From Nitrospirota bacterium (lineage in GTDB: Bacteria; Nitrospirota; UBA9217), in the NCBI GenBank assembly GCA_963749655.1, contig CAVVOB010000026.1, positions 1 to 64,000 on the forward strand: a stretch of 64,000 nucleotides of DNA. The letters are read 5' to 3'. A program made the translations under genes and the position numbers. The notes under the pieces are model-generated. The model searched no databases. It saw only the letters and a list, made by a program, of their open reading frames with translations, and had not been told where the DNA came from. Positions 22,306 to 64,000 of the stretch are shown here, in pieces; the first letter of the stretch is position 1; each line of letters starts with the position of its first letter.

Positions 22306-23364
22306 GCCACATTCAACTTTGAAGTGCAACAAATGAGCTAGCAACTTCTACTGGTGTTTTAAATCCCAGACATTTTCTGGGTCGATTGTTAATTAGCTTC
22401 TCGATCTTTTTGATCTGATCTTTGTCAATCTTACTGAAGTCGGTTCCCTTTGGCAAGTAGCGGCGGATGAGGCCATTTACCTGCTCATTCGAACCACGTT
22501 GCCATGCAGCATAGGGATATGCGAAGTAGCACTTGATGCCAAGTGTTTCTGTCAGCACTTCGTGACTGGCGTTCTCCGTGCCATTGTCCATGGTGAGCGT
22601 TCTTTTCGCCTTAGGCGGAAGCTTCTTGAGTACTTTTGTGACCGCCTTATTCGTTTCGGCGGCTGACTTACTTTTTATCTTCGTCAGCCGAAGTAGCCGG
22701 GTTACACGTTCGGTCATGCTGTGAAGCGCTACCTTGCTTTTGCGAGAGATTATTGTATCGCTCTCCCAATGACCGACTTGCTTACGCTGGTCAACGGCCT
22801 TTGGCCTAGCAGCAATCGGAACCCTATTGGGAATCTTGGTTTTTCGTACTTTTCTCCCTTTTCCCTTAATGCGCCGTTTCCGATGGGCGCGACAGAGTTG
22901 GGAGATAAGTTGATTACCATCGGGAGTGTCCCGATGGTAAATAAACTGATAGATCGCTTCATGGCTTATCGACTGACCGTTTTTCTTTAAGCGACCGGCG
23001 ATGATCTCCGGGGACCAGCCTAGTTTCAGCTTTTGCCTGACGTAGCGCTGGATCTTCTTGCTCTTAAGCAACGGCCGGCTATGACGTGCTGTCAGTTTTC
23101 TCTGAACCGATCGTTTTTGCGCCTGACAGGGGGTGTAACAGCTATATCCCTGAGAGGCGTTACGTCTAAGCTCGCGGGAGATCGTTCCCTTGTCGCGGCC
23201 GATCGTCCGGGCAATTTCGGAGGGGCCTTTGCCCTCCCAGTGCATACTTGCTATGATCTCACGCTCAGCTTCGGTAAGATGAACATAGGTTTTTGACATA
23301 GTCACCTAGGATAGCAGATTCCTTGTTGCTATCCCAGGTGTTGCACTTCACAATTGAACTTGCG
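22306..23364 (-). mobile_element. IS30-family insertion sequence (1059 bp)
   Basis: 26-bp imperfect terminal IRs (22306-22331, 23339-23364; core TTCAA..TGAAGTGCAACA), AAT direct repeat on both flanks. Confidence 0.92.
22313..23305 (-). CDS. IS30 DDE transposase
   Basis: HTH (TISRELRRN), WSPE, GHWESDT, TMDNGTE, QRGSNE, NNRPRKCLG. Confidence 0.95.
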   Translation of the reverse strand: MTMSKTYVHLTEAEREIIASMHWEGKGPSEIARTIGRDKGTISRELRRNASQGYSCYTPCQAQKRSVQRKLTARHSRPLLKSKKIQRYVRQKLKLGWSPEIIAGRLKKNGQSISHEAIYQFIYHRDTPDGNQLISQLCRAHRKRRIKGKGRKVRKTKIPNRVPIAARPKAVDQRKQVGHWESDTIISRKSKVALHSMTERVTRLLRLTKIKSKSAAETNKAVTKVLKKLPPKAKRTLTMDNGTENASHEVLTETLGIKCYFAYPYAAWQRGSNEQVNGLIRRYLPKGTDFSKIDKDQIKKIEKLINNRPRKCLGFKTPVEVASSFVALQS

Positions 23365-27027: not shown

Positions 27028-27531
27028 TTTGCGAATTTATTCTGTTCACCCCTGTTGTGAAAAGCCGTACGCGTATTGATAATCTGTTACAAGCGAGGTC
27101 AATGGTCAGTTGGCCCCTCCCCGCTACCCTCACCATGCCGGACGTATTTCCCGAATATCGAGAGACATAAACAGGTGTAACGTCCGGCGATCCGATCCAT
27201 GCCTTGCGGTCGAAATAATACAAAACGTGAATGCCAGGCATACCGTTGTGCGGAATTATATGGTTCTGTGACATGCTTGTTCTTCCATGCTAAAAATTTT
27301 CCAGGAGAAAATGAAAAAGGTTATATCGAGGTTCTCCGTATGGACTTGCGTCTCAGGGAAAACATCCGTACTCCTTTGGTTTTCAGTGACTGAGACCGAA
27401 GCAGCAGCAGAGGTATTTGACGTCGAGGCTCAAGATCGGTTTCAGCCGCCCCTGGAGAAAAGAGTAGAAATAAAATAGGTTTCGAATATGAATGTTGTGT
27501 TCCACGAGGAAAGAAAAGGAGTGTGAGAACC

Positions 27532-27975
27532 ATGGAACAGAGGCCGATAAAAAGATTGATGACGGCAAGAATTTTCTCGATTCTCGCCGGCATGTTATAC
27601 AGCTGCGGCGGCGGTGGAAGCTACGGGGGGAGCAGTGCGGCTCCTGCCGTTCCTTCTCCTTCCCCTGCAACGTCGACGGACGAGGTTGTGGCCTGTCCAG
27701 CGAGCGGCACGAGCGCTATGTCAATTGTGAGTATGGTCTCGCCCGGGTTCAGCCCCAACAGCCTCACGGTGCCTGTCAACACAACGATGAAATGGACCAA
27801 CAATGATGCGATCCTTCACACGGTGACGAGCACGACGGTGCCTGCGAGCGGCACTTTCGACCAGCAGGTAAGTCCCGGCACCTCGGTCTGTCTGAAGTTT
27901 ACTTCAGCCGGAACCTTTAACTATCATTGTTCGATCCACCCGGCAACTATGATAGGAGTGGTGACCATACAGTAA
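27532..27975 (+). CDS. Cupredoxin (plastocyanin/azurin-like) lipoprotein 1
   Basis: Lipobox LYSC; type-1 Cu ligands HTVT..YHCSIHPATM. Confidence 0.85.
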   Translation: MEQRPIKRLMTARIFSILAGMLYSCGGGGSYGGSSAAPAVPSPSPATSTDEVVACPASGTSAMSIVSMVSPGFSPNSLTVPVNTTMKWTNNDAILHTVTSTTVPASGTFDQQVSPGTSVCLKFTSAGTFNYHCSIHPATMIGVVTIQ

Positions 27976-28085
27976 CGTCTTTAAAGGTCCGAGAAAATCA
28001 AAAGAAGGTGCGAGGCAGGAGAGTAAATGCCTCGCACGCCCCTTTTGTGTCTCCTTACAAGAATTTGTGCAGGGAGGGCATTGCA

Positions 28086-28494
28086 ATGAGGATAGCGAAG
28101 AATATCGCCACCTTTGTATCGCTTATGGTTGCTTTGACGGCCTTGTATTCCTGCGGCAGCAGCAGCTCCAATACGAACATGAGCACCGTTTCATCGGCAA
28201 GCGCAAAGATCGTGGCCTGTCCAGCGACGGGGTTTACGAATGTGGCAATATTCAATTTTGCGTTTCAGCCGGTCAGCGCTGCAATTTCAGCGAACGGCAT
28301 TGTCAAGTGGGTCAATGCCGACTCGACAGATCATACGGTCACCAGCAACGCGCCGGGGGCACTTGACGGGAAGTTCGATTCAGGAAATTTAGCGCCGAAC
28401 GCGACCGTATGCGTGCAATTCATGCAGTCGGGCACCTATCAATACTTTTGCAACATCCATGTGTTCATGACAGGGGACGGTGACCGTGCAGTAA
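28086..28494 (+). CDS. Cupredoxin lipoprotein 2 (extra G near 28473)
   Basis: Lipobox LYSC; HTVT..YFCNIHVFM; removing one G restores GTVTVQ* like paralog 1. Confidence 0.8.
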
Positions 28495-28708
28495 AGGCTG
28501 CACCTGCAACCGTGATTGCCTCGGATGATGTATGCTACTTTACCGTTCTTATGAACTGCCGCGGTGCAGGACTGCAAAAAACGAAAAATGCGTTTTTCCC
28601 CGGGGGAGGCACAGATGAGGTTCTTCCCGGGCTTCTGACTGAGAGGGTCTGGCCGTCCAAATTCCTGCCTGGCCATAACGCGACTACCTGCTCCAGTAAA
28701 TAAGTTTG

Positions 28709-29413
28709 CTAAAAAGGCAGTCCCACTATCAGACGGACTTCGCGGTCATTTGTCTTTTGATTCAGTCCGTAAACGGCACCGATGTTCGCCCAGATTCTGT
28801 TTCCCGGCCAGGCGATCGTCGGGCCGACGGCATATTCATTCTCTGTATAGCTCCCATTGCTTTCTGCCCCGACACGGAGCCAGGGAACTATCTCGTAGCT
28901 TATCCCCGCTGCATATTCGTTTTCAACAAAACCGGACCTGTACCTTCGATCGTATATCTGATTATAGACTATGTTGGTCTTTCCAAGGTCCTTGGAGAGG
29001 ATCAGTTTCCCTTCGAAGGCATCGTCTCCGGCGAGATTAACCTCATGTTCGGCATACTGCAAGATATCCAAAGGCAGCGCATTGGTTTCGGCAATTCTGT
29101 ACTTAAGTTCTATTTTGTAGCCTTGATAGCCCAGGGACGAGCTGTCCGCTTCTTGTCCATAGACCTCATAGAGGTTCACATTAAGGTGATCCGTAATGCC
29201 GTATTCAAGTTCAAGCTGCTGAGTCCAGTCACTTGCATTCCTCGTCTGGATGTCTTTTGTTACTGCGGTATTATACAATTCGGCTTCCGCGTCGCCTTTT
29301 CCCAGGGTCCAGTATTCCTCCGTCCAGACGTAGCTTCGCTGGCCCGCTTGAGCTCCTGTGGTCATCAGAACAAACAATATAGTCAGCAACGATCTCTTTA
29401 ATAGAACAGCCAT
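28709..29413 (-). CDS. Putative outer-membrane beta-barrel protein of unknown function
   Basis: Signal peptide (..GAQA), ELEYGITD, C-terminal Phe. Confidence 0.7.
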   Translation of the reverse strand: MAVLLKRSLLTILFVLMTTGAQAGQRSYVWTEEYWTLGKGDAEAELYNTAVTKDIQTRNASDWTQQLELEYGITDHLNVNLYEVYGQEADSSSLGYQGYKIELKYRIAETNALPLDILQYAEHEVNLAGDDAFEGKLILSKDLGKTNIVYNQIYDRRYRSGFVENEYAAGISYEIVPWLRVGAESNGSYTENEYAVGPTIAWPGNRIWANIGAVYGLNQKTNDREVRLIVGLPF

Positions 29414-29434
29414 AGTCGACGTGCCCTTCAATAC

Positions 29435-29453
29435 GATATTGATAATCATTTTC
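29435..29453. promoter_or_regulatory. Fur box
   Basis: GATATTGATAATCATTTTC matches GATAATGATAATCATTATC at 17 of 19 positions, just upstream of the 29413 start. Confidence 0.8.
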
Positions 29454-29753
29454 AACAAGAAGGATAATACGACTCTTTCGGCTCGATAGCAAGATTTTTT
29501 GGAAAATGAAGTGCGGGATATACGAGAAAAGAAAATTTCGAAAATGGCAGGATGTAGCCAGGTGGACGTCGAGGGATTGCAGAAGCGACGAGAGCGGTTA
29601 AAACCGCCCCCGTCGTTGGCTCTGCTCGTGCAGTTTAAGCTGAATTACGGCACATACTCGCTGAACCGTGCGAAAATGTGGCAGCGAACACCATATCGTG
29701 ACGATCGGCCCGATAGGGTGCATGTTTCATGGCCCTTCGAGCGCCCTCCCGTT

Positions 29754-30167
29754 CTACGGTTTCGCCACAGACCACAGGTCCTTAAATCCCTGGCCGGCTG
29801 TATCACCGGCTTTAGCGTCCTTGCTGAAGTAATAAAGCGGCATTCCCTTGTAAGTCGTCTGTTTTACTCCGTCTGCACGTGTGATCGTCCCGAAGTCGCC
29901 GCCGGCCAGACCGTCCTTAGCGTCAACGCTCTCCCGATAATACAACGGCCAGATCCCAACACAAGGCCCTTCGCAAGCGCTCTTTCCCGGGGAATCCTTC
30001 TTGAAGGTATAGAGCGTCATTCCGGCGATGTCGGTAAGATAGCTCCCGAGCCCTTCCTTTTGCGCGACTTTGACTGCGTGATGTTCAGCAAACGCGGTCC
30101 CCACTCCTACTATAGCCGCAAGAATTACTATCAACGTCGATAATTTCACAAACTTCTTCATCTTCAT
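29754..30167 (-). CDS. Secreted Yx(F/W/Y)xxD-repeat protein (COG4315-like)
   Basis: GMTLYTFKKD, CEGPCVGIWP, GMPLYYFSKD, GDTAGQG; signal peptide. Confidence 0.85.
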   Translation of the reverse strand: MKMKKFVKLSTLIVILAAIVGVGTAFAEHHAVKVAQKEGLGSYLTDIAGMTLYTFKKDSPGKSACEGPCVGIWPLYYRESVDAKDGLAGGDFGTITRADGVKQTTYKGMPLYYFSKDAKAGDTAGQGFKDLWSVAKP

Positions 30168-30207
30168 GGTTGTTCCTCCTTGTTTGATTGAAGGCGATGA
30201 TACTATA

Positions 30208-30236
30208 AGCATAGCAGTCCAGGTTGATCAAGTCAA
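30208..30236 (-). promoter_or_regulatory. sigma70-type promoter
   Basis: TTGACT-17 nt-TATGCT on the minus strand upstream of 30167. Confidence 0.5.
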
Positions 30237-30469
30237 TGTCACGTGCGGGAAGCACGACGAATCAATCATTGAAGCGCCAGGAGCGGGGAAGAGCATTCGG
30301 TTGCTTTTATGGAGCGATCAAGGTCGGGCGACAGACAGATTCTGTTGTATAGGTAACCTGCATGCGGCCCTCTTTGTTCAAAATCAGATGCTGAACATGC
30401 TATAATTTTAAAGATAGATGACTCCCAAGTAACAGATCGATACAGCAACCCCCAAAAGGAAATATTCTC

Positions 30470-31249
30470 ATGATGTTGTTCTTGCCTGAGCGGAGGCGCT
30501 TCCAGGAATTTATAGATCTCCCTCTTGAGAACTATAGTCTGTCCGAGTATTCCGGGAACCTTGCGGATATCAGGAAAGTCAACCGGTTTCTTGGCGGCTA
30601 TTACGCAGTGCTTAAGCGTTTTTCATCGCTCCTGCAGCCTGATGCGAGGCGCCTGACAAGACCGATCAGGGTACTGGATGTTGCAACAGGCTCGGCCGAT
30701 ATTCCCGCAGCGATAGTAAAATGGGCGCGCGGGAAGGGACTTCCGATCGAAGTGACGGCGATTGACAGCAATCTCTTCGCGGTCCGGGAAGCGGCGGCCT
30801 TCACTACGGCATACCCGGAAATTACCGTTGCCGTCGCCGACGGGCTTTCGCTTCCCTTCGAGAATGGGAGCTTCGACATCGTATTGTGCGTCAAGACGCT
30901 GCACCACCTCAGCGATGAGGAGACGGTCAGGCTGCTGAAGGAAATATACAGGGTGGCTGCCGTCGGCTATATGGTCATGGATCTGCGGCGGAGCCGTTTG
31001 GCTTGGTCGCTCATAACCGTGCTCACGAGGTTCTTTTCGCGGAACAGGCTTACCCGGCATGACGGCCCGATGTCGGTACTCCGTTCCTACACGGTCACCG
31101 AGCTGGACGCCCTGGCTGAAAGAGCGGGCCTTGCTGGCCGCAGGGTGGTAGAGGCGCCGTTCTGGCACATGGTAGCATTCGGAAGGAAAGAATGGGATGA
31201 AAAAATTCGTCTTGTCCGTAGCGACCAATTTCGACAACGGGCTTCTTGA
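30470..31249 (+). CDS. SAM-dependent methyltransferase (type III PKS-associated family)
   Basis: VNRFLGG, LDVATGSAD, TLHHL, DLRRS, TRHDGPMSV. Confidence 0.9.
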   Translation: MMLFLPERRRFQEFIDLPLENYSLSEYSGNLADIRKVNRFLGGYYAVLKRFSSLLQPDARRLTRPIRVLDVATGSADIPAAIVKWARGKGLPIEVTAIDSNLFAVREAAAFTTAYPEITVAVADGLSLPFENGSFDIVLCVKTLHHLSDEETVRLLKEIYRVAAVGYMVMDLRRSRLAWSLITVLTRFFSRNRLTRHDGPMSVLRSYTVTELDALAERAGLAGRRVVEAPFWHMVAFGRKEWDEKIRLVRSDQFRQRAS

Positions 31250-32420
31250 CGCTATCTCGGCATATCCGGTTACGGAGGTTTTCGGCAAGTTGTCCTCCGA
31301 TGCAGTCGGAGGAGGCAGGGCATCCTTCGCATTGCCATCGACCTCTCGGAAGCAGTTCGAGGACCATATCCGGGCGGCCCGATCAAAGGGCATCGGCTTC
31401 AATTATCTTCTGAATCCCGCCTGCATGGACAACCGCGAGTTTACCAGACAGGGGCAGCGGGAGATCGAGTCGCTCCTGGAGTACATCGAGGGAGCCGGGG
31501 TGAGCGCTGTGACGGTATCGCTCCCCTTTCTTTTGCCGATCATAAAAAAGCGCCATCCGCGGCTTAAGGTCAGGGTGGGCGTCTACGCCCGGGTCGACGG
31601 CGTCTCGAAGGCGCGGTTCTGGGAGGACGGCGGCGCGGACTGTATAACCCTTGAATCGCTGAGCGTGAACCGGGATTTCAGGCTGCTTGCGGCCCTGCGG
31701 AAGGCACTCAAGATAGAACTACAACTTATCGTGAACGCAAACTGTCGGCTTTTCTGTCCGCTCTCAGGCCAGCACATGGTGAATCTTTCCCATGCTTCGC
31801 AGAAAGGACATCCGACGAGGGGATTCATGATCGACTGGTGTGTAATGAAGTGTTCTTTCGATAAGCTGAAAGACCCGGCGCAGTACCTTCGCTCGGAATT
31901 CATCAGGCCGGAGGACCTGGGCCTTTACCGGGACCTCGGCTACGACTCTTTCAAGGTATTGGAAAGGGGAGCACCCACGCCGGTCCTGGCCAGAAGGGTA
32001 AAGGCCTACTCCGAGGGCCGGTTCGACGGGAATCTTCTTGATCTCATACAGCCCTTCGGGTACAAAGAAAAAAGCGGCGCGTCCCTGTTCGGAGGATTGT
32101 TCAACGTATGGAAGTACATGTTCAGGCCGCGTATGGCCCGGTTATCGAAGCTCCTGAAGCTCAAAGACCTCGCCAGCAGACGGGGGATGCTCGCACCCCT
32201 CGAGGGCGATCCTGTCTATATAGACAACAGCAAATTGAACGGCTTCATACCCGGCTTCAGGAACAAGGACTGCCGCTCTACCGACTGCGGCGCCTGCGGT
32301 TGGTGCGACGTCTATGCCAGGAAGGCGATCTCGATCGACGACGTATACCGTACCGAGCTTCTCAAGCTCTATGAAGATGCTTTTAGCGATATGTATTCCG
32401 GCGAGTTGTGGGGCATTTAG
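31197..32420 (+). CDS. U32-family Fe-S protein (putative O2-independent hydroxylase)
   Basis: GGGR, FNYLLNPAC, NANCRLFC..WCVMKC, FIRPEDL, FKVLER; C-terminal CRSTDCGACGWC. Confidence 0.85.
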   Translation: MKKFVLSVATNFDNGLLDAISAYPVTEVFGKLSSDAVGGGRASFALPSTSRKQFEDHIRAARSKGIGFNYLLNPACMDNREFTRQGQREIESLLEYIEGAGVSAVTVSLPFLLPIIKKRHPRLKVRVGVYARVDGVSKARFWEDGGADCITLESLSVNRDFRLLAALRKALKIELQLIVNANCRLFCPLSGQHMVNLSHASQKGHPTRGFMIDWCVMKCSFDKLKDPAQYLRSEFIRPEDLGLYRDLGYDSFKVLERGAPTPVLARRVKAYSEGRFDGNLLDLIQPFGYKEKSGASLFGGLFNVWKYMFRPRMARLSKLLKLKDLASRRGMLAPLEGDPVYIDNSKLNGFIPGFRNKDCRSTDCGACGWCDVYARKAISIDDVYRTELLKLYEDAFSDMYSGELWGI

Positions 32421-32466
32421 AAAATCATAAACATTTTTTCTAACTCTCGTATGGGGGGGGGGACAG

Positions 32467-32739
32467 GTGGATACCTTAGAAAGAGTCAGAAGTCTTTTTC
32501 AGAAGAATTACGATTTCCCCGTGGAGCGGCTGCAACCGGAAGCGAACATCGAGAGCATAGGCCTCGACTCTTTGGATAAGATCGAATTCCTGTTCGATCT
32601 TGAAAAGGAATTCAACGTCAAGATCCCGATCGCGAAGTTACGCTTACCACCATCCAGGATATTATCAGCGTCATTGAGAGGTTGGTTTATGAACAAAACG
32701 GACAGCGTGGCCGCCGTGATGGCCAGGATTGATAAATGA
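32467..32739 (+). CDS. Acyl carrier protein (probable frameshift near 32630)
   Basis: GLDSLD phosphopantetheine site, LEKEFNVKIP. Confidence 0.85.
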   Translation: MDTLERVRSLFQKNYDFPVERLQPEANIESIGLDSLDKIEFLFDLEKEFNVKIPIAKLRLPPSRILSASLRGWFMNKTDSVAAVMARIDK

Positions 32740-33986
32740 GACGGGTGGCTATAACAGGGATGGGCATTATTTCCCCATTGGGCAATTCGTGCGAAGTATT
32801 TTTTAACGGTCTCGCTGCGGGAAAATCAGCCATCAAGCGAATCACCTCGGATTTCGCCGAACGTTTGTCAGTGAAAATAGCCGCAGAGGCGAATTTTGTC
32901 TCAGAGGAACATTTCCCGAAAAAGATTGCCCGTTCACTTGACCGCGTGAGCCAGTTTGCGCTGGTCGCAGCTTCCCAGGCGTGGAAGGACTCCGGGATCG
33001 AACTGTCCGGGGAAGACAAACGACGGGCCGGCGTCTATCTCGGAACGGGCATGGGAGGAGCGAAGACCCTCGAAGACTCTTATGCGCAGCTTTTCGAACA
33101 AAAGGTAAAGCGGCTCCATCCGCTTACCGTCGTCATGGTGATGAATAACGCCGCTGCTTCCGCCATCTCCATTGAATACGGGCTGAAGGGCCCCTGTCTG
33201 ACGTTTTCCACAGCCTGTTCTTCTTCCGCAGTCGCCATCGGCGAGGCCTTCCGGCTGATCAAGCACGGCTACGCCGATGTCATGCTTGCCGGCGGCACGG
33301 AATCGCTCCTTACCTGCGGCATTATGATGAGTTGGGAATCGATCGGGACCCTGGCTCTGGAAGCAGAAGTTCCGTCGACTTCCTGCAGACCCTTTGCCAG
33401 GGACCGAACCGGTTTCGTCCTGGGTGAGGGAGCCGCAATTCTAATCCTGGAATCGTGGGACCGTGCGATAGAGCGGGGCGCCGGGATCTACGGCGAGATT
33501 GTCGGTTACGGCTCAACGGCCGACGGAGAGCATATCACAAAACCCTCCGTGGAAGGCCAGGCCCTTGCCATTCAAGCCGCCTTGGATGAAGCCGGGATGG
33601 GACCGGACGACATCGATTATATCAATGCTCACGGTACGGCCACGTTGGCCAATGATGCTGCTGAGACACAGGCAATAAAGGATGTGTTCGGCCAAAAGGC
33701 CTACAAAATTCCCGTCAGCTCCACGAAGTCCATGCACGGACATCTCCTGGGCGCAGCCGGAGCCGTGGAGCTTGTTGCCGCGGTTCTCGCGATGAGGAAC
33801 CGGACAATACCGCCCACAGCGACATTGACTGTGCCTGATCCGGAGTGCGATCTCGACTACGTACCCCGGAAGGCCAAAACAGGAATGGATTTGAGGGCGG
33901 TCATGTCAAATTCCTTTGCCTTCGGCGGGACAAATTCCGTTTTGATCGTGCGGAAGCATGAGCCAGGGAAAGATCAAGGTGCATGA
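32736..33986 (+). CDS. fabF: Beta-ketoacyl-ACP synthase II
   Basis: Cys-His-His triad TACSSS, NAHGT, HGHLLG; SNSFAFGG. Confidence 0.9.
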   Translation: MRRVAITGMGIISPLGNSCEVFFNGLAAGKSAIKRITSDFAERLSVKIAAEANFVSEEHFPKKIARSLDRVSQFALVAASQAWKDSGIELSGEDKRRAGVYLGTGMGGAKTLEDSYAQLFEQKVKRLHPLTVVMVMNNAAASAISIEYGLKGPCLTFSTACSSSAVAIGEAFRLIKHGYADVMLAGGTESLLTCGIMMSWESIGTLALEAEVPSTSCRPFARDRTGFVLGEGAAILILESWDRAIERGAGIYGEIVGYGSTADGEHITKPSVEGQALAIQAALDEAGMGPDDIDYINAHGTATLANDAAETQAIKDVFGQKAYKIPVSSTKSMHGHLLGAAGAVELVAAVLAMRNRTIPPTATLTVPDPECDLDYVPRKAKTGMDLRAVMSNSFAFGGTNSVLIVRKHEPGKDQGA

Positions 33987-34039
33987 CGAATGGCTGTGTG
34001 CCGGCCTATTTTTCCTGAATGCTAGAGGAAGGAGATTGT

Positions 34040-35114
34040 ATGAATGATGAGCAGACGACAGGGCCGGGGACGCATATTGGTTCCGTTGCAACCGCGACGC
34101 CTCCCTGCTCCCTCGACCAGGCAACGCTCGGACGGCTTGCGCGCAAGCATTACGAAAAAAGGTTGAGTTCCCGAAGCATGTCCGTCATCCACGCGCTTTT
34201 CTCCCATCCGAGCATCAAGCGGCGGAACTTCGCCATCGACGATGTGGAGAATCTTGTCGATGAGGACCTCGATGCGCGCGTCACCCGTTTTACCCACTGG
34301 TCCCGGGAACTTTCCGCCGAGGCGATCGATAAGGCGCTGGCACAGGCCGGCCTGGGCAGGGGCGACGTGGCCGGATTGGTCGTAAATACCTGCACGGGAT
34401 ATATATGTCCCGGCATTTCAACCTACCTCATAGAGAAGCTGGGCCTCTCGCGCAGTGTGCGCGTGTACGACTTGGTCGGGAGCGGGTGCGGTGGAGCGAT
34501 TCCGAACCTCGAGAATCTCAGCGTCGCTCGTGAAACAGCAGAGCGAAGGTGTCATCGTGAGCGTGTCCGTGGAAATCTGCACGGCGACCTTTCAAATGGA
34601 AGACGATCTCAGCCTTCTTCTTTCGAACACGCTCTTCGGAGACGGCGCAGCAGCAGCCGTGCTGTGGGCCAGACCGCAGGGATACGAGCTTGTCGCCTCG
34701 GCAAGGCGGTATGTTCCGGAGCAGCGCGAGTCGATCCGCTACATCCACAAAAAGGGTCAGCTCTTTAATCAGCTTTCAATCAGGCTGCCGGACATGGTCC
34801 GAAAGGCGGCTGCACAGGTCGTCGCCGATGTGCTGGCGCCCCGATCGCTCAAAGCAGGAGACATCAAACACTGGGCGCTCCACAGCGGCGGTGAAAAAAT
34901 TATCAATGCCGTCCGGGACGAGATCGGGCTGTCGGAGGAGCAGGTCCATGCGACGCGCTCGGTGCTCTCCGAATACGGGAATATGTCGTCGCCCACGGTC
35001 TGGTTCGTGCTGCGGGAAATCGAGAAACGGGGAGTAGCACCGGGAGAGTGGTGCATCATGGTCGCCTTTGGCGCGGGGCTTTCTGCCCATGCATACCTGC
35101 TCCGGAAAAGATGA
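34040..35114 (+). CDS. Type III polyketide synthase (frameshift ~34515)
   Basis: NTCTG, GSGCGG (Cys), VEICT, LFGDGAAA, HSGG (His), GNMSS (Asn), AFGAG. Confidence 0.92.
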
Positions 35115-35134
35115 AGGACAACGGGGGGAGATAC

Positions 35135-35599
35135 ATGAAGATGATGAGGGAAATCATTGGAATTTTTCTGCTCTTTATCCTGTTCGCTGCAGCTGCCTCC
35201 CATGCAGCCCAGGGCGACGATATTTTGGGAGTGTGGAACAACGAGGAAAAAGACGGCAAAATAGAAATTTTCAATTCCAGCGGAAAATACTGCGGGAAGA
35301 TCGTCTGGGCCAAGGAACCGAACTATCCGGCTGGATCATCAGAGGGGATTCCAGGCACACCAAGGCTTGATAACCACAACCCGGACGCCGCGAAGAGGTC
35401 CAGGCCCATTCTTGGCCTTCAGATTGTGAACGATTTCATCTTTGCCGGCGAGGACGAGTGGAAAGGCGGGACAGTGTACGACCCGAAGAGCGGCAATACG
35501 TACCGCGGCAAACTGACGCTTGTTTCGCCCAATGAACTCGACCTGAGAGGCTTCATCGGCATCCCGCTTTTCGGCAGAACCACTATCTGGACAAGGTAA
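35135..35599 (+). CDS. DUF2147-family secreted protein
   Basis: Signal peptide, DNHNPD, YDPKSGNTY, RGFIG..GRTTIWTR. Confidence 0.85.
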   Translation: MKMMREIIGIFLLFILFAAAASHAAQGDDILGVWNNEEKDGKIEIFNSSGKYCGKIVWAKEPNYPAGSSEGIPGTPRLDNHNPDAAKRSRPILGLQIVNDFIFAGEDEWKGGTVYDPKSGNTYRGKLTLVSPNELDLRGFIGIPLFGRTTIWTR

Positions 35600-59918: not shown

Positions 59919-60794
<876 letters not shown>

Positions 60795-60798
60795 CTAA

Positions 60799-60814
60799 AG
60801 CAATAGACATGCCA
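60799..60814 (-). promoter_or_regulatory. sigma54 promoter of the nif operon
   Basis: TGGCAT-GTCTA-TTGCT. Confidence 0.88.
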
Positions 60815-61587
60815 TTTTAAAAAATGCTTTTTCACTGGGCTTTCTGAAGTTGTTTGTAAATGAGAATGCGTAAGAGAAGAGCAGGTGTTGGAAAACTATG
60901 CAACAAGAATGCAACGTCAGCATCCCGGACTGATACGCAATCAGGATATCCGCTAAGAGTTCTTTGATGTGTTCCCGGTCGATTCTTTATCCTGACCAAT
61001 CGCGTTGAATCGGTCTTCCCGTGCAGTTTCGGATGTTACACGCACTATTTACCATTCTCGGTCCTGCACGCTGACGGACTACATATTACAGGTGGTGTTC
61101 TTTACCCTTGCCATAACAGCGGCACTATGGACTCATGGGTGTACAGCGAATTATTTTTTCCTAAGCCTCCCTCGATTTGATGGACACTCCGAGTACTTGT
61201 ATAACCGGAGAGGAGGCCGCTTATGGCGAGGAGCGAACGTCGTCAATTCACTCAAGCGTTCAAAAGAAATGCTGTTAATCTCGTCATGGAGAAAGGTGTT
61301 CCCGTGAGGAAGGTCGTGACCTTGATATCCATCCGAATCTAGTGCATCAATGGAGGCGGATGTATATGGCAGAAGGTGACAGCGCTTTTGAAAAAGCAAA
61401 CTTAGCCGGGTGTCCATTTTTTCGTGGAAGATCATTTTTTACTTTCGGCAATCTTATGCTTCCAGCTCCGGCAAAGTTATGGTTAAAGTCACCCACCCCC
61501 CTCCCCGCAGTATTATTTTGCAGCCCCTTCTGCAGTAAAATCACTGCATCAAATCCGCAACCTATTGAAAAACCGCGCGCAAAATTC

Positions 61588-61603
61588 TGGCACGGCCCGT
61601 GCA
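61588..61603 (+). promoter_or_regulatory. sigma54 promoter of USP gene
   Basis: TGGCAC-GGCCC-GTGCA; upstream palindrome TGCAGT-N6-ACTGCA (61531-61548). Confidence 0.75.
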
Positions 61604-61660
61604 ATATACAAGGCAGAAAGCGGCAAGCACTCATTTAAAAAATCCTAAGGAGGTAGTGAA

Positions 61661-62091
61661 ATGAAGATCATGGTTGCTTATGACGGGACGTTGCAGGCAA
61701 AGGAAGCATTGGCATACGGCATGGACAAGGCGCGGGAAAAGGGCGGCGAAGTGGTGGCCCTGCACGTTTTCAACAGCCCGATGTTTTTCGATTATGACGC
61801 CACGCCCGGTGCACGGGACGAAGCGAAGGCGGAGTCAGCGCGCTTTATAGCCGAAGCAAAAGCCATCATCGCCGAGAAGAGCAAGGGCGTGAAGGCAAGC
61901 CTCTACAGCACTGAAGGCGATCCGGCGGAAGAGGTTGTCGGCTTCGCGAAAGCCGAGAAGGTGGACGTGCTGCTCTGCCCCCCAAATTCACGGAGATCAT
62001 CAACAAGTACCGGAAGGCTACAGCTGAATCGGAGCTGGCCGGCGAAGCTGCCAAACTCCAGGTTGCAGCCCTTTCAACGAAGACGATGTAG
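61661..62091 (+). CDS. Universal stress protein (frameshift in C-run ~61980)
   Basis: MKIMVAYDGT..EGDP..DVLLCPP; shifted frame ends STKTM*. Confidence 0.85.
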
Positions 62092-62200
62092 TCGGAACAC
62101 GCGGACAACGGAGGTGCGGGGCTCACGAAGAGACGTTACCATGCTTTCTTCGTGATCCTCGCTCTGTTTCAGGCATTCATTTCAGTGAACGGAGTACACC

Positions 62201-62404
62201 ATGGATTTTGAACATGCATTTCAGCAATCGAATTTCTTTCTGATGATCCAGATGATGTTCATGGGGTCGCTGCTCGTGCCGACCATGATCGACCGGACCG
62301 ATATCTACGGCAAGGTCATGCGCGTCCTGGCGTCGATTGTCGTGAGCTTCGGGCCTTTTGCGATCCTGGCGTACGTGCTGTACGAGGTGTCGCGGATGAA
62401 CTGA
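62201..62404 (+). CDS. Small membrane protein (67 aa)
   Basis: GGAG RBS, two hydrophobic segments. Confidence 0.6.
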   Translation: MDFEHAFQQSNFFLMIQMMFMGSLLVPTMIDRTDIYGKVMRVLASIVVSFGPFAILAYVLYEVSRMN

Positions 62405-62416
62405 TCCTCCCGGGGA

Positions 62417-62629
62417 TCAGGGCTCGAACTTGGTCATATCGATCTCCCAGAAGCTATTCGATTTGTGATTGGTCCTTTTCTTTTTCAGCACGATGGGAGT
62501 CGTAAGGGTTTTCCAGATCCGCTGGAACTCCTCCTGGAAAAGGGGCATGTTTTCGGTCATGACTGCCGCCGCGAACAGGCTCAGGAAAAAGACGTTCTTG
62601 AGAACAAGTACGGACAGATCGGTATGCAT
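62417..62629 (-). CDS. Small hypothetical protein (70 aa)
   Basis: AGGAGG RBS; directly downstream of the AVTFAE peptide. Confidence 0.55.
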   Translation of the reverse strand: MHTDLSVLVLKNVFFLSLFAAAVMTENMPLFQEEFQRIWKTLTTPIVLKKKRTNHKSNSFWEIDMTKFEP

Positions 62630-62656
62630 CCTGGACCTCCTGCAGGGAATGAAATA

Positions 62657-62785
62657 TTACCGGGCTGCCGGCTGTTCACGGAGCTCGACACAGGCAGGGG
62701 ATATTTCCATTGCCTGGTATTCTCCGGACTCGGCAAAGGTTACTGCTACGAACAGGTTTTCGAGCATGGACAAAAGGTTTTTCAT
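62657..62785 (-). CDS. 42-aa peptide with VAVTFAESGE motif
   Basis: MKNLLSMLENLFVAVTFAESGEYQAMEISPACVELREQPAAR; GAGGAGG RBS; paralog of 11063-11209. Confidence 0.8.
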   Translation of the reverse strand: MKNLLSMLENLFVAVTFAESGEYQAMEISPACVELREQPAAR

Positions 62786-62840
62786 AATGTGCCTCCTCGG
62801 AAAGAGCTGCTGTTTGAATGGGGAATCTGACATAGTAAAT

Positions 62841-62856
62841 AGCAAGGGCCGTGCCG
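62841..62856 (-). promoter_or_regulatory. sigma54 promoter of the peptide gene
   Basis: CGGCAC-GGCCC-TTGCT. Confidence 0.8.
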
Positions 62857-62907
62857 ATATTTAAGCTATTGAATTTGTGCGATTAATTATATATAACCAT
62901 AGAATGG

Positions 62908-63001
62908 TGCACTTATTTGATGCATTATCTGACAGCAAAGAAGATGTAAGCTCAGGTAATTTAATTAAAACAGGCTACTGTTAGTGCACTTATATGTTGC
63001 A
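62908..63001. promoter_or_regulatory. Two NtrC-like enhancer sites
   Basis: TGCACTTATTTGATGCA (62908-62924) and TGCACTTATATGTTGCA (62985-63001), each one mismatch from TGCAC-N7-GTGCA. Confidence 0.65.
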
Positions 63002-63049
63002 TTTAATCCTCATGTTGCACTAGCAATGGCAAAAAAAGAACAATATTTT

Positions 63050-63148
63050 TTACCGCAATGGCGCAAAGGACGCGAGGAAAGCAGAAATCGAATTAGACCC
63101 ATGAAGATAGTCTTGTTTTTCCTTGCGACCTTTGCGCCCTCGCGGTTC
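63050..63148. repeat. Inverted 8/9-mer-arm element
   Basis: accgcaatggcgcaaaggacgcgagg ... ccttgcgacctttgcgccctcgcggtt. Confidence 0.7.
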
Positions 63149-63231
63149 AATCGTTTTCTGTTTTGTCCGCATCGTCTGTGGTGCGGTGAGATGTTTCAGT
63201 TATTTGCGGGTACAACGGCAGGAGGCAAGCC

Positions 63232-64000
63232 ATGAAAATTCTCTCTCTCTATGATGGAACGTTACAATCCAAGGCAGCCATGCTGTATGGCTTAAGAAAG
63301 GCAAAAGAGCAGGCCGGCGAGTTGATCGTGCTCCAGGTATTCCAGACCAGCCTGTTCCTCGATTACGACGCCGGTCCGCGCGCCGAGGAGATCGCCCGCG
63401 CTGAAGCGGCCCGCCACCGCCGCGATGCGGAGGCCCTTATCAGCGAAGCCGGACGCCATGGAATACCTGTCCGCGTCCAGTCCGAAGAGGGGGATACGGA
63501 AGTAGAGGCGCTGCGCATCGCGCAGGCTGAGCGTGTCGACCTGATCCTTGCGTCCCCGCGCTATAAGGCGATCGCAAAAAAGGCTTCCTGTCCGGTCAGG
63601 ATCATACCGGGCGTCATCCTCCTTCCTGTGGACAATTCGGAAATGCTCCTTGCAGACCTGGACGAGATCGTCGGCGAGGCCAGGGCTTCCCAGTCAAAAG
63701 TCCTTTTGCTCGGCGTAGTGCCGATACATCTCTACAGCGCAGGAGAGAAGAAAGAAATTGAGGGTGTGATGAAGAGCACGAGCGCTGCAGTACGGAAACT
63801 CAAACATGCGCTGATTGAGCAGAAGATTGACACGTCCGAACTTGTCCGCTCAGGATACCCCGACGAGGAGATCCTGAAGGCGGCCGATGAGTTCGGCGTA
63901 TCGCTCATCATGCTGCCGGCAGGCGGCAAGACGCCGTCCGAGCTGACCAAGGCCGCCTCGATCCTGCTGGACGAACCCGAGCGGGTGCACCGGCCCCTGC
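63232..64000 (+). CDS. Tandem-domain universal stress protein (3'-partial)
   Basis: MKILSLYDGTLQSK (paralog of 61661), second domain LLPVDNS..SGYPDEEIL; AGGAGG RBS; runs off the window. Confidence 0.88.
   Translation, partial: MKILSLYDGTLQSKAAMLYGLRKAKEQAGELIVLQVFQTSLFLDYDAGPRAEEIARAEAARHRRDAEALISEAGRHGIPVRVQSEEGDTEVEALRIAQAERVDLILASPRYKAIAKKASCPVRIIPGVILLPVDNSEMLLADLDEIVGEARASQSKVLLLGVVPIHLYSAGEKKEIEGVMKSTSAAVRKLKHALIEQKIDTSELVRSGYPDEEILKAADEFGVSLIMLPAGGKTPSELTKAASILLDEPERVHRPL

Follow-up and report, generated by a model that had tools for sequence, protein, structure and literature searches.

The 64,000 nucleotides of Nitrospirota DNA analysed here (the window) carry, at positions 30470–35599, six closely spaced genes on one strand that encode a methyltransferase (MT), a divergent member of the U32 family, an acyl carrier protein (ACP), a FabF-like ketosynthase, a type III polyketide synthase (PKS) and a DUF2147 protein. 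Judged from sequence, the locus is on balance probably, though by no means certainly, an operon that makes a tailored phenolic lipid and whose U32 protein would hydroxylate the ring independently of O2. Gene content, the fold and cysteine conservation of the U32 protein, and both the conservation and the variability of its linkage are established.

All six co-oriented genes listed in the original prediction were found. The first (30470..31249, + strand, like all features given here) encodes a class I SAM-dependent MT of the PRK06202-like/UbiE-like type with Methyltransf_25 and UbiE Pfam matches; its best NCBIfam match, PRK06202, scores 148 bits, under the cut-off of 243. A sigma-70-like promoter match (TTCAAA-18-TATAAT with a TG extension, 30377..30406) lies 64 nt upstream of its start and is a consensus match only, in a region that held six such sites versus 3.4 expected by chance. 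The MT gene overlaps by 53 nt with the gene for the 407-residue U32 protein (31197..32420), and this overlap is kept in relatives. In the spacer that follows, a G10 homopolymer read from the sequence just 5′ of the ACP start codon (32453..32462) could be either a ribosome-binding region or an indel-prone tract. The ACP (32467..32739) has a PP-binding domain and the DSL phosphopantetheine motif. It is followed by a FabF-like β-ketoacyl-ACP synthase II (32736..33986), which scores 484.3 bits against NF005589 (cut-off 387) and 492.1 bits against TIGR03150, slightly below the cut-off of 493.75; orthologues that are 77–83% identical occupy the equivalent position in relatives. The type III PKS (34019..35114) is split over two frames, with a Chal_sti_synt_C match of 75 bits on its second half. 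Catalytic residues described earlier as intact can indeed be read: ACSSS, HGT and HGH (Cys-His-His) in FabF, DSL in the ACP, and the Cys-His-Asn motifs GSGCGG, HSGGEK and GNMSS distributed over the two PKS halves; an intact PKS orthologue aligns to chalcone synthase over all three. The last gene (35048..35599, likely real start the ATG at 35135) encodes a DUF2147 protein (PF09917, 124.8 bits, cut-off 27) with a signal-like N-terminal segment. By comparison with HP1028 (PDB 4inn) and what is available of the literature, it is a candidate lipocalin-like carrier of a hydrophobic product, and DUF2147 recurs beside the PKS or U32 gene in relatives.

The frameshifts flagged in the original prediction could now be placed. 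The ACP gene has lost one base near 32628, so that its true C terminus lies in another frame with a stop at 32732; relatives match only residues 1–54 or 1–60 of the listed open reading frame. The PKS gene has one extra base near 34511–34513, with part one running from 34019 to approximately 34510 and part two in the frame of the open reading frame at 34455–35114. Despite not being one uninterrupted frame, it shares 89% identity with the unbroken orthologue in L002 across 342 alignment columns. These lesions would be real, and no product made in this genome, if the cluster were a decaying pseudogene island. Such decay would fit two of six genes being out of frame, an IS30-like transposase 7 kb upstream, the lack of a B12-radical SAM gene that most relatives have, and a patchy distribution within the genus, where 3 of the 14 sampled genomes carry the U32 orthologue in addition to the host. 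We nevertheless consider it quite unlikely. Frameshifts are frequent elsewhere in the host assembly: 12 of 47 query-contig matches are split across frames (7 from this PKS, 4 from a paralogue on contig C15 and 1 from a 2,017-residue protein with about six frame changes), and the ammonium transporter in the window is likewise split. Besides the single indels, the sequences are 81–89% identical to intact orthologues, and the overall pattern fits long-read indel errors. Since other genes of the same genome are also split, the ACP and PKS frameshifts are probably errors of long-read assembly.

The U32 protein matches PF01136 only marginally (24.2 bits, cut-off 22.4), whereas a 40%-identical paralogue scores 45.4 bits; its family membership therefore rests mainly on fold and profile comparisons. 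The AlphaFold2 model (pLDDT 93.9) is a U32 TIM barrel, (β/α)8, and the PDB entry that matches it best is U32 structure 5d88 (Foldseek E = 8.7e-12, TM 0.76 on target), described in the available literature as the sole solved U32 structure and also detected from sequence (phmmer E = 1e-7). In hhalign comparisons, the family matched Escherichia coli TrhP with 97% probability, RlhA with 95.8%, UbiU with 72% and UbiV with 0.9%. We regard the predicted fold and the U32 assignment as secure.

The cysteine pattern reported earlier, Cx3C..Cx3C plus a C-terminal Cx4Cx2Cx2C, matches positions C183 to C370. C183-x3-C187 and C215-x3-C219 lie in the barrel, and their counterparts in the family land on the TrhP cysteine motif in the hhalign alignment; C359-x4-C364-x2-C367-x2-C370 sit in a helical C-terminal domain and form a family-specific motif. 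In an alignment of 35 family sequences, C183, C187, C219, C367, C370 and H193 are invariant, C359 and C364 are present in 34, and C215, the third core cysteine, in 24. The core spacing is CX3C-X27-CX3C versus the canonical CX6CX15CX3C, and the invariant H193 could, from its conservation, stand in for the third core cysteine as a ligand. According to the available portions of two papers (PMC10990095, PMC11574389), a four-cysteine [4Fe-4S] motif is common to the U32 family, and every characterised member is tied to the hydroxylation, without O2, of a ring that is aromatic or heteroaromatic, although direct hydroxylase activity of UbiU/UbiV has so far had no in vitro demonstration; most of the twelve subfamilies have no assigned function. 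The family to which the protein in the window belongs is itself broad, with 448 clusters at 50% identity (E ≤ 1e-30).

Source annotations call the protein a ‘collagenase-like PrtC family protease’ or ‘U32 family peptidase’, and collagenolytic activity has been reported, in the text available to us, for Helicobacter pylori HP0169. That it acts as a peptidase is, however, barely credible: we saw by eye no signal-like N terminus in its translation, its cysteine sets are invariant, its context is always lipid or polyketide biosynthesis, and the literature, as far as available, now reads the U32 family as Fe–S oxidases.

The profile scores place the protein nearer to TrhP (YegQ) and RlhA (YdcP), its best matches, than to UbiU and UbiV, and PF01136 has no other match in the host genome. 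It could thus be a housekeeping enzyme for RNA hydroxylation, of the same kind as TrhP or RlhA (on which, according to the parts of the literature available, ho5U in tRNA and ho5C2501 in rRNA respectively depend), that sits beside the PKS gene by chance. We consider this very improbable. Unlike a housekeeping gene, the U32 orthologue is patchy: of 63 further genomes sampled from the host family, 8 have it. Its coding sequence overlaps that of the MT, and across phyla it is accompanied by PKS, radical SAM and FabF genes, as an accessory gene within a biosynthetic operon. Identity to TrhP and RlhA is approximately 21% and covers the barrel only, and Pfam gives PF01136 alone in the 407 residues, with RlhA’s DUF3656 missing. 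Phylogeny, which had been proposed as a check, put the family in a clade of its own on a long branch, separate from E. coli UbiU, UbiV, RlhA and TrhP rather than grouped with the RNA-hydroxylating clades.

As a putative ring hydroxylase, the protein would resemble UbiU/UbiV (E. coli YhbU/YhbV) in several respects: it shares the U32 superfamily, the TIM barrel and a cysteine-ligated Fe–S site (putative here), would act on an electron-rich, lipid-tailed aromatic ring beside a SAM methyltransferase, and is found where a flavin monooxygenase would serve aerobically. By contrast with that system, its sequence is very distant, its cysteine spacing differs, it has the extra C-terminal CX4CX2CX2C domain, no UbiT/SCP2 gene is adjacent, and the substrate would be a polyketide instead of a prenylated benzoate. 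A UbiU/UbiV-type pair was rejected, given one U32 gene in the genome, the weak UbiV match and a host with futalosine-pathway (menaquinone) genes.

To assess linkage, we compared orthologue loci (U32 at least 62% identical) from genomes and metagenome contigs. The MT gene lies directly upstream of the U32 gene in 35 of the 44 loci with at least 800 nt of upstream sequence, and a type III PKS gene lies within 9 kb in 14 of the 19 loci whose flanks both extend for at least 6 kb. In metagenomes as well as in two phyla, the U32 gene is a conserved part of type III PKS loci, and the linkage on which the original prediction depended holds. Six cultured Geomonas and Citrifermentans genomes have the order MT-U32-PKS with gaps of 3–45 nt. 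In the host family, all eight genomes with a U32 orthologue (host included) also have the PKS. The reverse does not apply: MT-U32 occurs in just 8 of 37 PKS-bearing genomes of that family and is missing even in relatives whose PKS is 82–84% identical.

Known operons of this general type, namely srsABC of Streptomyces, hidABC of cyanobacteria, those of planctomycetes and the mycobacterial polyketide quinone loci, likewise combine a type III PKS, an MT and a ring-oxidising enzyme. In the published material available to us, the Geobacteraceae gene order is that of hidABC and of the planctomycete MT-oxidoreductase-PKS operons, with U32 filling the slot of the FAD oxidoreductase. Unlike srsABC and hidABC, the U32 loci have a U32 Fe–S-type protein where those have an FAD enzyme and, across U32/PKS loci, an extra and more constant B12-radical SAM partner; the Nitrospirota version adds ACP, FabF and DUF2147. 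The locus may work like these operons without being a member of them.

The original prediction had U32 in place of a flavin hydroxylase and raised mutual exclusion of the two beside the PKS-MT pair. As it stated, no flavoprotein lies within the MT-to-DUF2147 run; in the host genome, FAD_binding_3 gave just three matches, each of them partial and N-terminal and all on other contigs, and a full-length class A flavin monooxygenase is absent. A flavin (FAD) monooxygenase homologue was found in none of 55 U32 orthologue loci. Conversely, PKS-MT-FAD monooxygenase (FAD_binding_3) occurs in two genomes from within the phylum, both outside the 26 with a match to this U32 family. The MT of such an operon is 24% identical to that in the window (E = 1e-5), and PRK06202 is the best NCBIfam match for the MTs of both operon types. 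Most close relatives of the PKS are accompanied by neither U32 nor a flavoprotein, and replacement is therefore no general rule; in the host family MT-U32 is optional.

The constant partner of the PKS across nearly all relatives is instead a B12-radical SAM gene, present in 15 of the 19 long-flank U32 loci. The earlier inventory missed this partner, which is absent from the cluster in the window; in the host it occurs only at the second PKS locus, on contig C15. From this distribution, MT-U32 is best described as an optional extra on a core made up of B12-radical SAM and PKS. The radical SAM protein adjoining the PKS best matches the ‘lipid biosynthesis B12/radical SAM’ family TIGR04072 (293–328 bits, under the cut-off of 360) and next BzaD, an aromatic C-methylase.

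Across the wider U32 family, neighbours are mostly FabF, B12-radical SAM, and LuxC/E or desaturase-like lipid clusters, with B12-radical SAM the commonest (25 of 55 loci). Another Nitrospirota family has the order rSAM-MT-U32-SRPBCC-FabF, and no type III PKS orthologue was found in the five genomes of this lineage that were searched; four gave matches 29–30% identical to the PKS, which we read as FabH-like, and the fifth gave none. Because this lineage exists, the U32 substrate could be something other than the product of a type III PKS. The U32-like protein could accordingly work in partnership with the B12-radical SAM enzyme, for instance as an Fe–S subunit that transfers electrons or one that presents the substrate, or it could catalyse another redox step on a lipid; it would then not be a ring hydroxylase and the PKS link would be secondary. 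Paralogous clades in which U32-like and radical SAM genes are directly adjacent without PKS or MT agree with this, and the C-terminal four-cysteine site could be an electron-transfer cluster. We judge it unlikely, yet the most serious of the alternatives: the cluster in the window has U32 without a radical SAM gene, the two sit where enzymes of two distinct tailoring steps would be expected, and the B12-radical SAM enzymes known to us so far work without a U32 partner. The characterised U32 members, as far as the cited papers are available, are all linked to hydroxylation.

FabF, ACP, radical SAM and unusual MT genes also occur together in TIGR04072 ladderane-associated clusters (Rattray et al. 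2009). Unlike here, the terms ‘peptidase’ and ‘collagenase’ do not appear in the text of that paper, which reports no polyketide synthase-like gene for the two genomes studied; our literature search found no paper joining ladderane and U32.

For the phenolic-lipid operon that we favour, we infer that the U32 protein binds an Fe–S cluster and acts as a hydroxylase, and likewise which oxygen donor it uses, in what order the steps run and what is made. Dedicated ACP and FabF would supply or lengthen an acyl starter, from which the PKS would make an aromatic head group (an alkylresorcinol- or pyrone-type lipid). The U32 protein would then add a ring hydroxyl without O2, in the manner proposed for UbiU/UbiV, TrhP and RlhA, with prephenate the likely oxygen donor, and the overlapping, probably translationally coupled MT would methylate the ring or its hydroxyl. 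In most relatives, the B12-radical SAM enzyme beside the PKS would add a further modification, probably a C-methyl group. The secreted, lipocalin-like DUF2147 protein would carry the hydrophobic product, likely an alkyl-(methoxy/methyl)-hydroquinone or -quinone. Such a pathway would parallel, without the use of O2, the Srs route of Streptomyces, the Hid route of cyanobacteria and the polyketide-quinone route of mycobacteria.

In the papers available to us, O2-independent hydroxylation by U32 proteins has so far been linked to three substrates: ubiquinone precursors, tRNA U34 and rRNA C2501. A literature search found no report of U32 in polyketide tailoring or of this U32–PKS pairing, in line with the original prediction. 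If true, a U32 enzyme in a polyketide operon would bring secondary and lipid metabolism within the reach of this chemistry and explain how anaerobes make hydroxylated aromatic lipids or quinones. We suggest tentatively, and with a good deal more doubt than the operon reading itself, that this clade is the first O2-independent hydroxylase of natural-product or lipid tailoring. Together with the PKS, MT and B12-radical SAM C-methylase, it might yield a benzoquinone-type ‘polyketide quinone’ without O2 in sulfate- or iron-reducing bacteria (Nitrospirota, Geobacteraceae), as a membrane electron carrier of higher potential beside menaquinone, and the wider family might be general anaerobic lipid hydroxylases. 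With MT-U32-PKS present in cultured, iron-reducing Geomonas and Citrifermentans, the operon is experimentally tractable now, and its small size could make it useful for assaying U32 chemistry in vivo; according to the literature available, no in vitro assay of that chemistry exists yet.

The host is a soil sulfur-cycling bacterium of the Nitrospirota. Its genome has dsrAB and chorismate mutase, the latter a precondition for prephenate supply. It also has three genes of the heme-copper oxidase family; the host is therefore not a strict anaerobe, and the anaerobic host pictured originally was too simple. In relatives, COX1 and SCO1 lie next to the PKS locus.

The original prediction listed a methyltransferase, a U32 protein, an ACP, FabF, a type III polyketide synthase (PKS) and a DUF2147 protein in a single run, and all six genes are indeed present and co-oriented within window positions 30470–35599. 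The first encodes a class I SAM methyltransferase (MT; 30470–31249), with Methyltransf_25 and UbiE matches and a best NCBIfam match to PRK06202 that, at 148 bits, falls under the cut-off; a promoter-like site, recognized by consensus match only, lies 64 nt 5′ of its start. This gene overlaps by 53 nt with that of the 407-aa U32-family protein (31197–32420; PF01136 at 24.2 bits versus a cut-off of 22.4), and similar overlaps occur in relatives. They are followed by genes for the ACP (32467–32739), a FabF-type ketosynthase (32736–33986; NF005589, 484 bits), the type III PKS (34019–35114) and the DUF2147 protein (35048–35599), whose lipocalin-like character would fit a carrier role for a hydrophobic product. 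The spacer that follows the U32 gene and precedes the ACP start codon contains ten consecutive G residues (32453–32462).

Two of these reading frames are broken. The ACP gene lacks one base near 32628, with the natural C terminus running on in another frame up to 32732, and the PKS gene has one extra base near 34511–34513. Frame breaks are found elsewhere in the assembly: 12 of 47 matches to the query contigs were split between frames (7 to the window PKS, 4 to its paralogue on contig C15 of the host genome and 1 to a 2017-aa protein with about six frame changes). We therefore think that the ACP and PKS breaks are long-read indel errors. The ammonium transporter gene (PF00909; 39940–42011, minus strand), split into two ORFs, is a further break in line with such errors. 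The one public DNA run with part of the region, containing 6% of the sampled words, yielded four short contigs, which covered neither frameshift site; no RNA run was listed.

The U32 protein is the sole PF01136 match in the host genome (4.27 Mb, 86.6% complete). Its AlphaFold2 model, computed with a 35-sequence alignment as input, reached a pLDDT of 93.9 and a pTM of 0.92, and its top match in the PDB was the U32 structure 5d88 (E = 8.7e-12), also matched by phmmer (1e-7). Profile comparison of the family formed by the protein and its relatives with the four E. coli U32 proteins, drawn from the annotated K-12 record, gave 97% for TrhP, 95.8% for RlhA, 72% for UbiU and 0.9% for UbiV, and in the profile alignment the TrhP cysteine motif coincides with C183/C187 and C215/C219 of the family. 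Across the 35 aligned family sequences, C183, C187, C219 and H193 are invariant, C215 is present in 24, and a C-terminal C359-x4-C364-x2-C367-x2-C370 set is conserved in 34–35. As the published canonical U32 motif is CX6CX15CX3C, the window protein classifies by sequence as a spacing variant of that motif with an extra cysteine-rich domain.

This family is large, with 1129 matches among 8000 scored candidates from a 90%-clustered database, the best 120 of which are 63–89% identical to the window protein; a 50%-clustered library gives 1630 representatives with E ≤ 1e-3, of which 448 reach E ≤ 1e-30. A rapid maximum-likelihood analysis placed 61 members of the family apart from UbiU, UbiV, RlhA and TrhP alike, but the separation is weak because of an SH-aLRT of 84 and long branches. 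Kimura et al. (2017) distinguished twelve U32 subfamilies, the majority of which are described in reviews as uncharacterised.

Inside one clade the linkage of the U32 gene with the PKS is conserved, although with clear limits. Among 20 loci on genome contigs, five Nitrospirota metagenome-assembled genomes (MAGs) share the order MT-U32-ACP-(FabF)-B12-binding radical SAM (B12-rSAM)-PKS, with DUF2147 next in four. MT-U32-PKS is the order in six isolates of Geomonas and Citrifermentans, and in two further MAGs the PKS lies within 7 kb of U32. Another six loci have no close PKS nearby, one of them stopping at a contig edge in a genome whose PKS is on another contig. The same layouts recur in 35 loci on metagenome contigs. 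When both sets were pooled (55 loci), an MT lay directly upstream of the U32 orthologue at 35 of the 44 loci with at least 800 nt of upstream sequence. At the 19 loci flanked by 6 kb or more in each direction, a PKS was found within 9 kb in 14 and a B12-rSAM gene within 9 kb in 15.

Of 401 genomes sampled from the host phylum, 26 have a member of the U32 family and 48 have the PKS orthologue. Within the host family, all eight genomes with the U32 orthologue, host included, also have the PKS, and only 8 of 37 PKS-bearing genomes have U32. The PKS tree contains two U32-linked clades, from Nitrospirota and Geobacterales, which correspond to two clades of the U32 tree and each of which neighbours rSAM-only clades. 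The U32 proteins closest to that of the window (85% identity; loci L001, L072, L190 and L193) occur beside a FabF reduced to its first 70–80 or so residues, with rSAM next. Unlike these, the window cluster has kept FabF and lacks the rSAM gene, which brings the layouts of the island to at least three. An IS30-like transposase gene (HTH_38 and rve; 22313–23305, minus strand), 7 kb upstream of the cluster, fits the patchy, island-like way in which the MT-U32 cluster is distributed among genomes of the genus.

We also examined 20 PKS loci from elsewhere: 19 in genomes without the U32 orthologue, and one on the PKS contig of genome G212, whose U32 and PKS genes are on different contigs. At 15 of these a B12-rSAM gene directly adjoins the PKS, as it does at the C15 locus of the host; no PKS ORF was obtained in two and the partner gene was absent in one. 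The best match of the adjacent rSAM protein was 'lipid biosynthesis B12-binding/radical SAM protein', and the second BzaD. At two loci where the PKS is more distant (37–38% identity), the order is PKS-MT-FAD_binding_3 monooxygenase, their MT sharing with that of the window a best match to PRK06202 and 24% identity. The original prediction raised the question of whether U32 and the FAD enzyme exclude each other. An FAD monooxygenase homologue was found near none of the 55 U32 loci, but most close PKS loci have neither U32 nor a flavoprotein, and we therefore rejected a simple one-for-one exchange. Instead, MT-U32 resembles a tailoring module that an rSAM-PKS core may or may not carry.

The C15 locus (about 60737–63457 of that contig, outside the window) is the second B12-rSAM/type III PKS pair of the host genome. 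Its PKS is 61–70% identical to the L002 PKS, which is the unbroken orthologue of the one in the window, and frame changes split both genes of the pair. Its flanks are common to same-genus genomes without a U32 gene, so the C15 pair has the appearance of a vertically inherited copy, and the window cluster that of an accessory island.

Other loci point away from a PKS partner. A second Nitrospirota family carries a U32 orthologue (58–64% identity) in the order rSAM-MT-U32-SRPBCC-FabF, with rSAM not always there; the layout also occurs in two metagenome contigs. Searching five such genomes with the PKS query gave only 29–30% identical matches in four, which we read as FabH-like, and none in one. 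The Acidobacteriota U32 copies (L005, L009, L010 and L019) lack both the MT and a close PKS, and their conserved neighbours have no Pfam match; the unlabelled metagenome contigs L196–L198 possibly belong with them. Family members occur in 35 of 351 sampled Desulfobacterota genomes, where the more distant clades, often with tandem U32 pairs, adjoin B12-rSAM genes in clusters that also hold LuxC, LuxE, homocitrate-synthase-like and aconitase-like genes. Distant Nitrospirota clades occur with amine-oxidase (phytoene-desaturase-like), AFOR and paired FabF genes. Across the 55 loci first clustered, the commonest neighbour was B12-rSAM (25), ahead of PKS (17), FabF (15) and MT (15). The main rival explanation ties the role of U32 to the B12-rSAM enzyme rather than to hydroxylation.

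According to two papers (PMC10990095, PMC11574389), every characterised U32 enzyme is linked to aromatic ring hydroxylation that needs no O2, and prephenate is named as the oxygen donor of UbiU/V. In the published MT-oxidoreductase-PKS operons (hidABC and those of planctomycetes), an FAD enzyme occupies the slot that the U32 gene has here. The accompanying enzymes, in turn, are consistent with a phenolic ring being modified step by step. On these three grounds, the best-supported mechanism is one in which the U32 protein would add a hydroxyl to the ring formed by the PKS, using no O2, before the coupled MT methylates it. We rate the locus as a variation on known kinds, the oxygen-independent U32 hydroxylases and the Srs/Hid-type phenolic lipid operons. 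Our literature search found no report that links the U32 family to type III PKSs, to the tailoring of polyketides or to ladderane-type lipid clusters. It also returned nothing relevant on type III PKS in Geobacter, on type III PKS joined with cobalamin radical SAM or on UbiU/UbiV homologues in biosynthetic gene clusters.

Two sets of paralogue clusters were seen alongside. Five Desulfobacterota loci (L126, L128, L129, L131 and L132) share a conserved cluster of B12-rSAM, homocitrate-synthase-like, aconitase-like, FAD/NAD oxidoreductase, LuxE, LuxC and a sometimes tandem U32 paralogue, with a VTT/DedA-like membrane protein after U32. Eight Nitrospirota loci (L062–L067, L069 and L070) encode a 36–40% identical U32 paralogue followed by an SRPBCC-like protein, with aldehyde:ferredoxin oxidoreductase and ketopantoate-reductase-like genes nearby; L062–L066 have additional paired FabF genes, with an ACP-like ORF in some, in place of which L069 and L070 have two B12-rSAM and two amine-oxidase (phytoene-desaturase-like) genes. 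These eight are reminiscent of the 'unusual lipid' clusters that have been discussed in connection with the synthesis of ladderanes and polyunsaturated hydrocarbons.

The host genome encodes dsrA above the model cut-off, with a weaker match just downstream that we take to be dsrB, as well as futalosine-pathway genes and two chorismate mutase domains; no full-length class A flavin monooxygenase was detected in this 86.6% complete genome. It also has three heme-copper oxidase (COX1-family) genes, because of which we rejected a strictly anaerobic host. This gene set is that of a sulfur-cycling organism that probably meets oxygen at times. Geomonas and Citrifermentans reduce iron under anaerobic conditions.

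In relatives of the host (L173–L175 and L186–L188), heme-copper oxidase subunit I and SCO1 genes adjoin the (FabF)/rSAM-PKS locus, and at L186–L188 a DUF5714/MbdU-like gene and genes for a rubredoxin-domain protein and rubrerythrin lie downstream of the PKS. These neighbours hint that the PKS product may be linked to oxygen or oxidative stress. Just upstream of the window operon, around a 249-aa ORF without a Pfam match (28709–29458, minus strand), lie genes for a tandem pair of cupredoxins (plastocyanin/azurin-like) and for a protein with Lipoprotein_15 repeats (27523–28703, plus strand; 29754–30212, minus strand).
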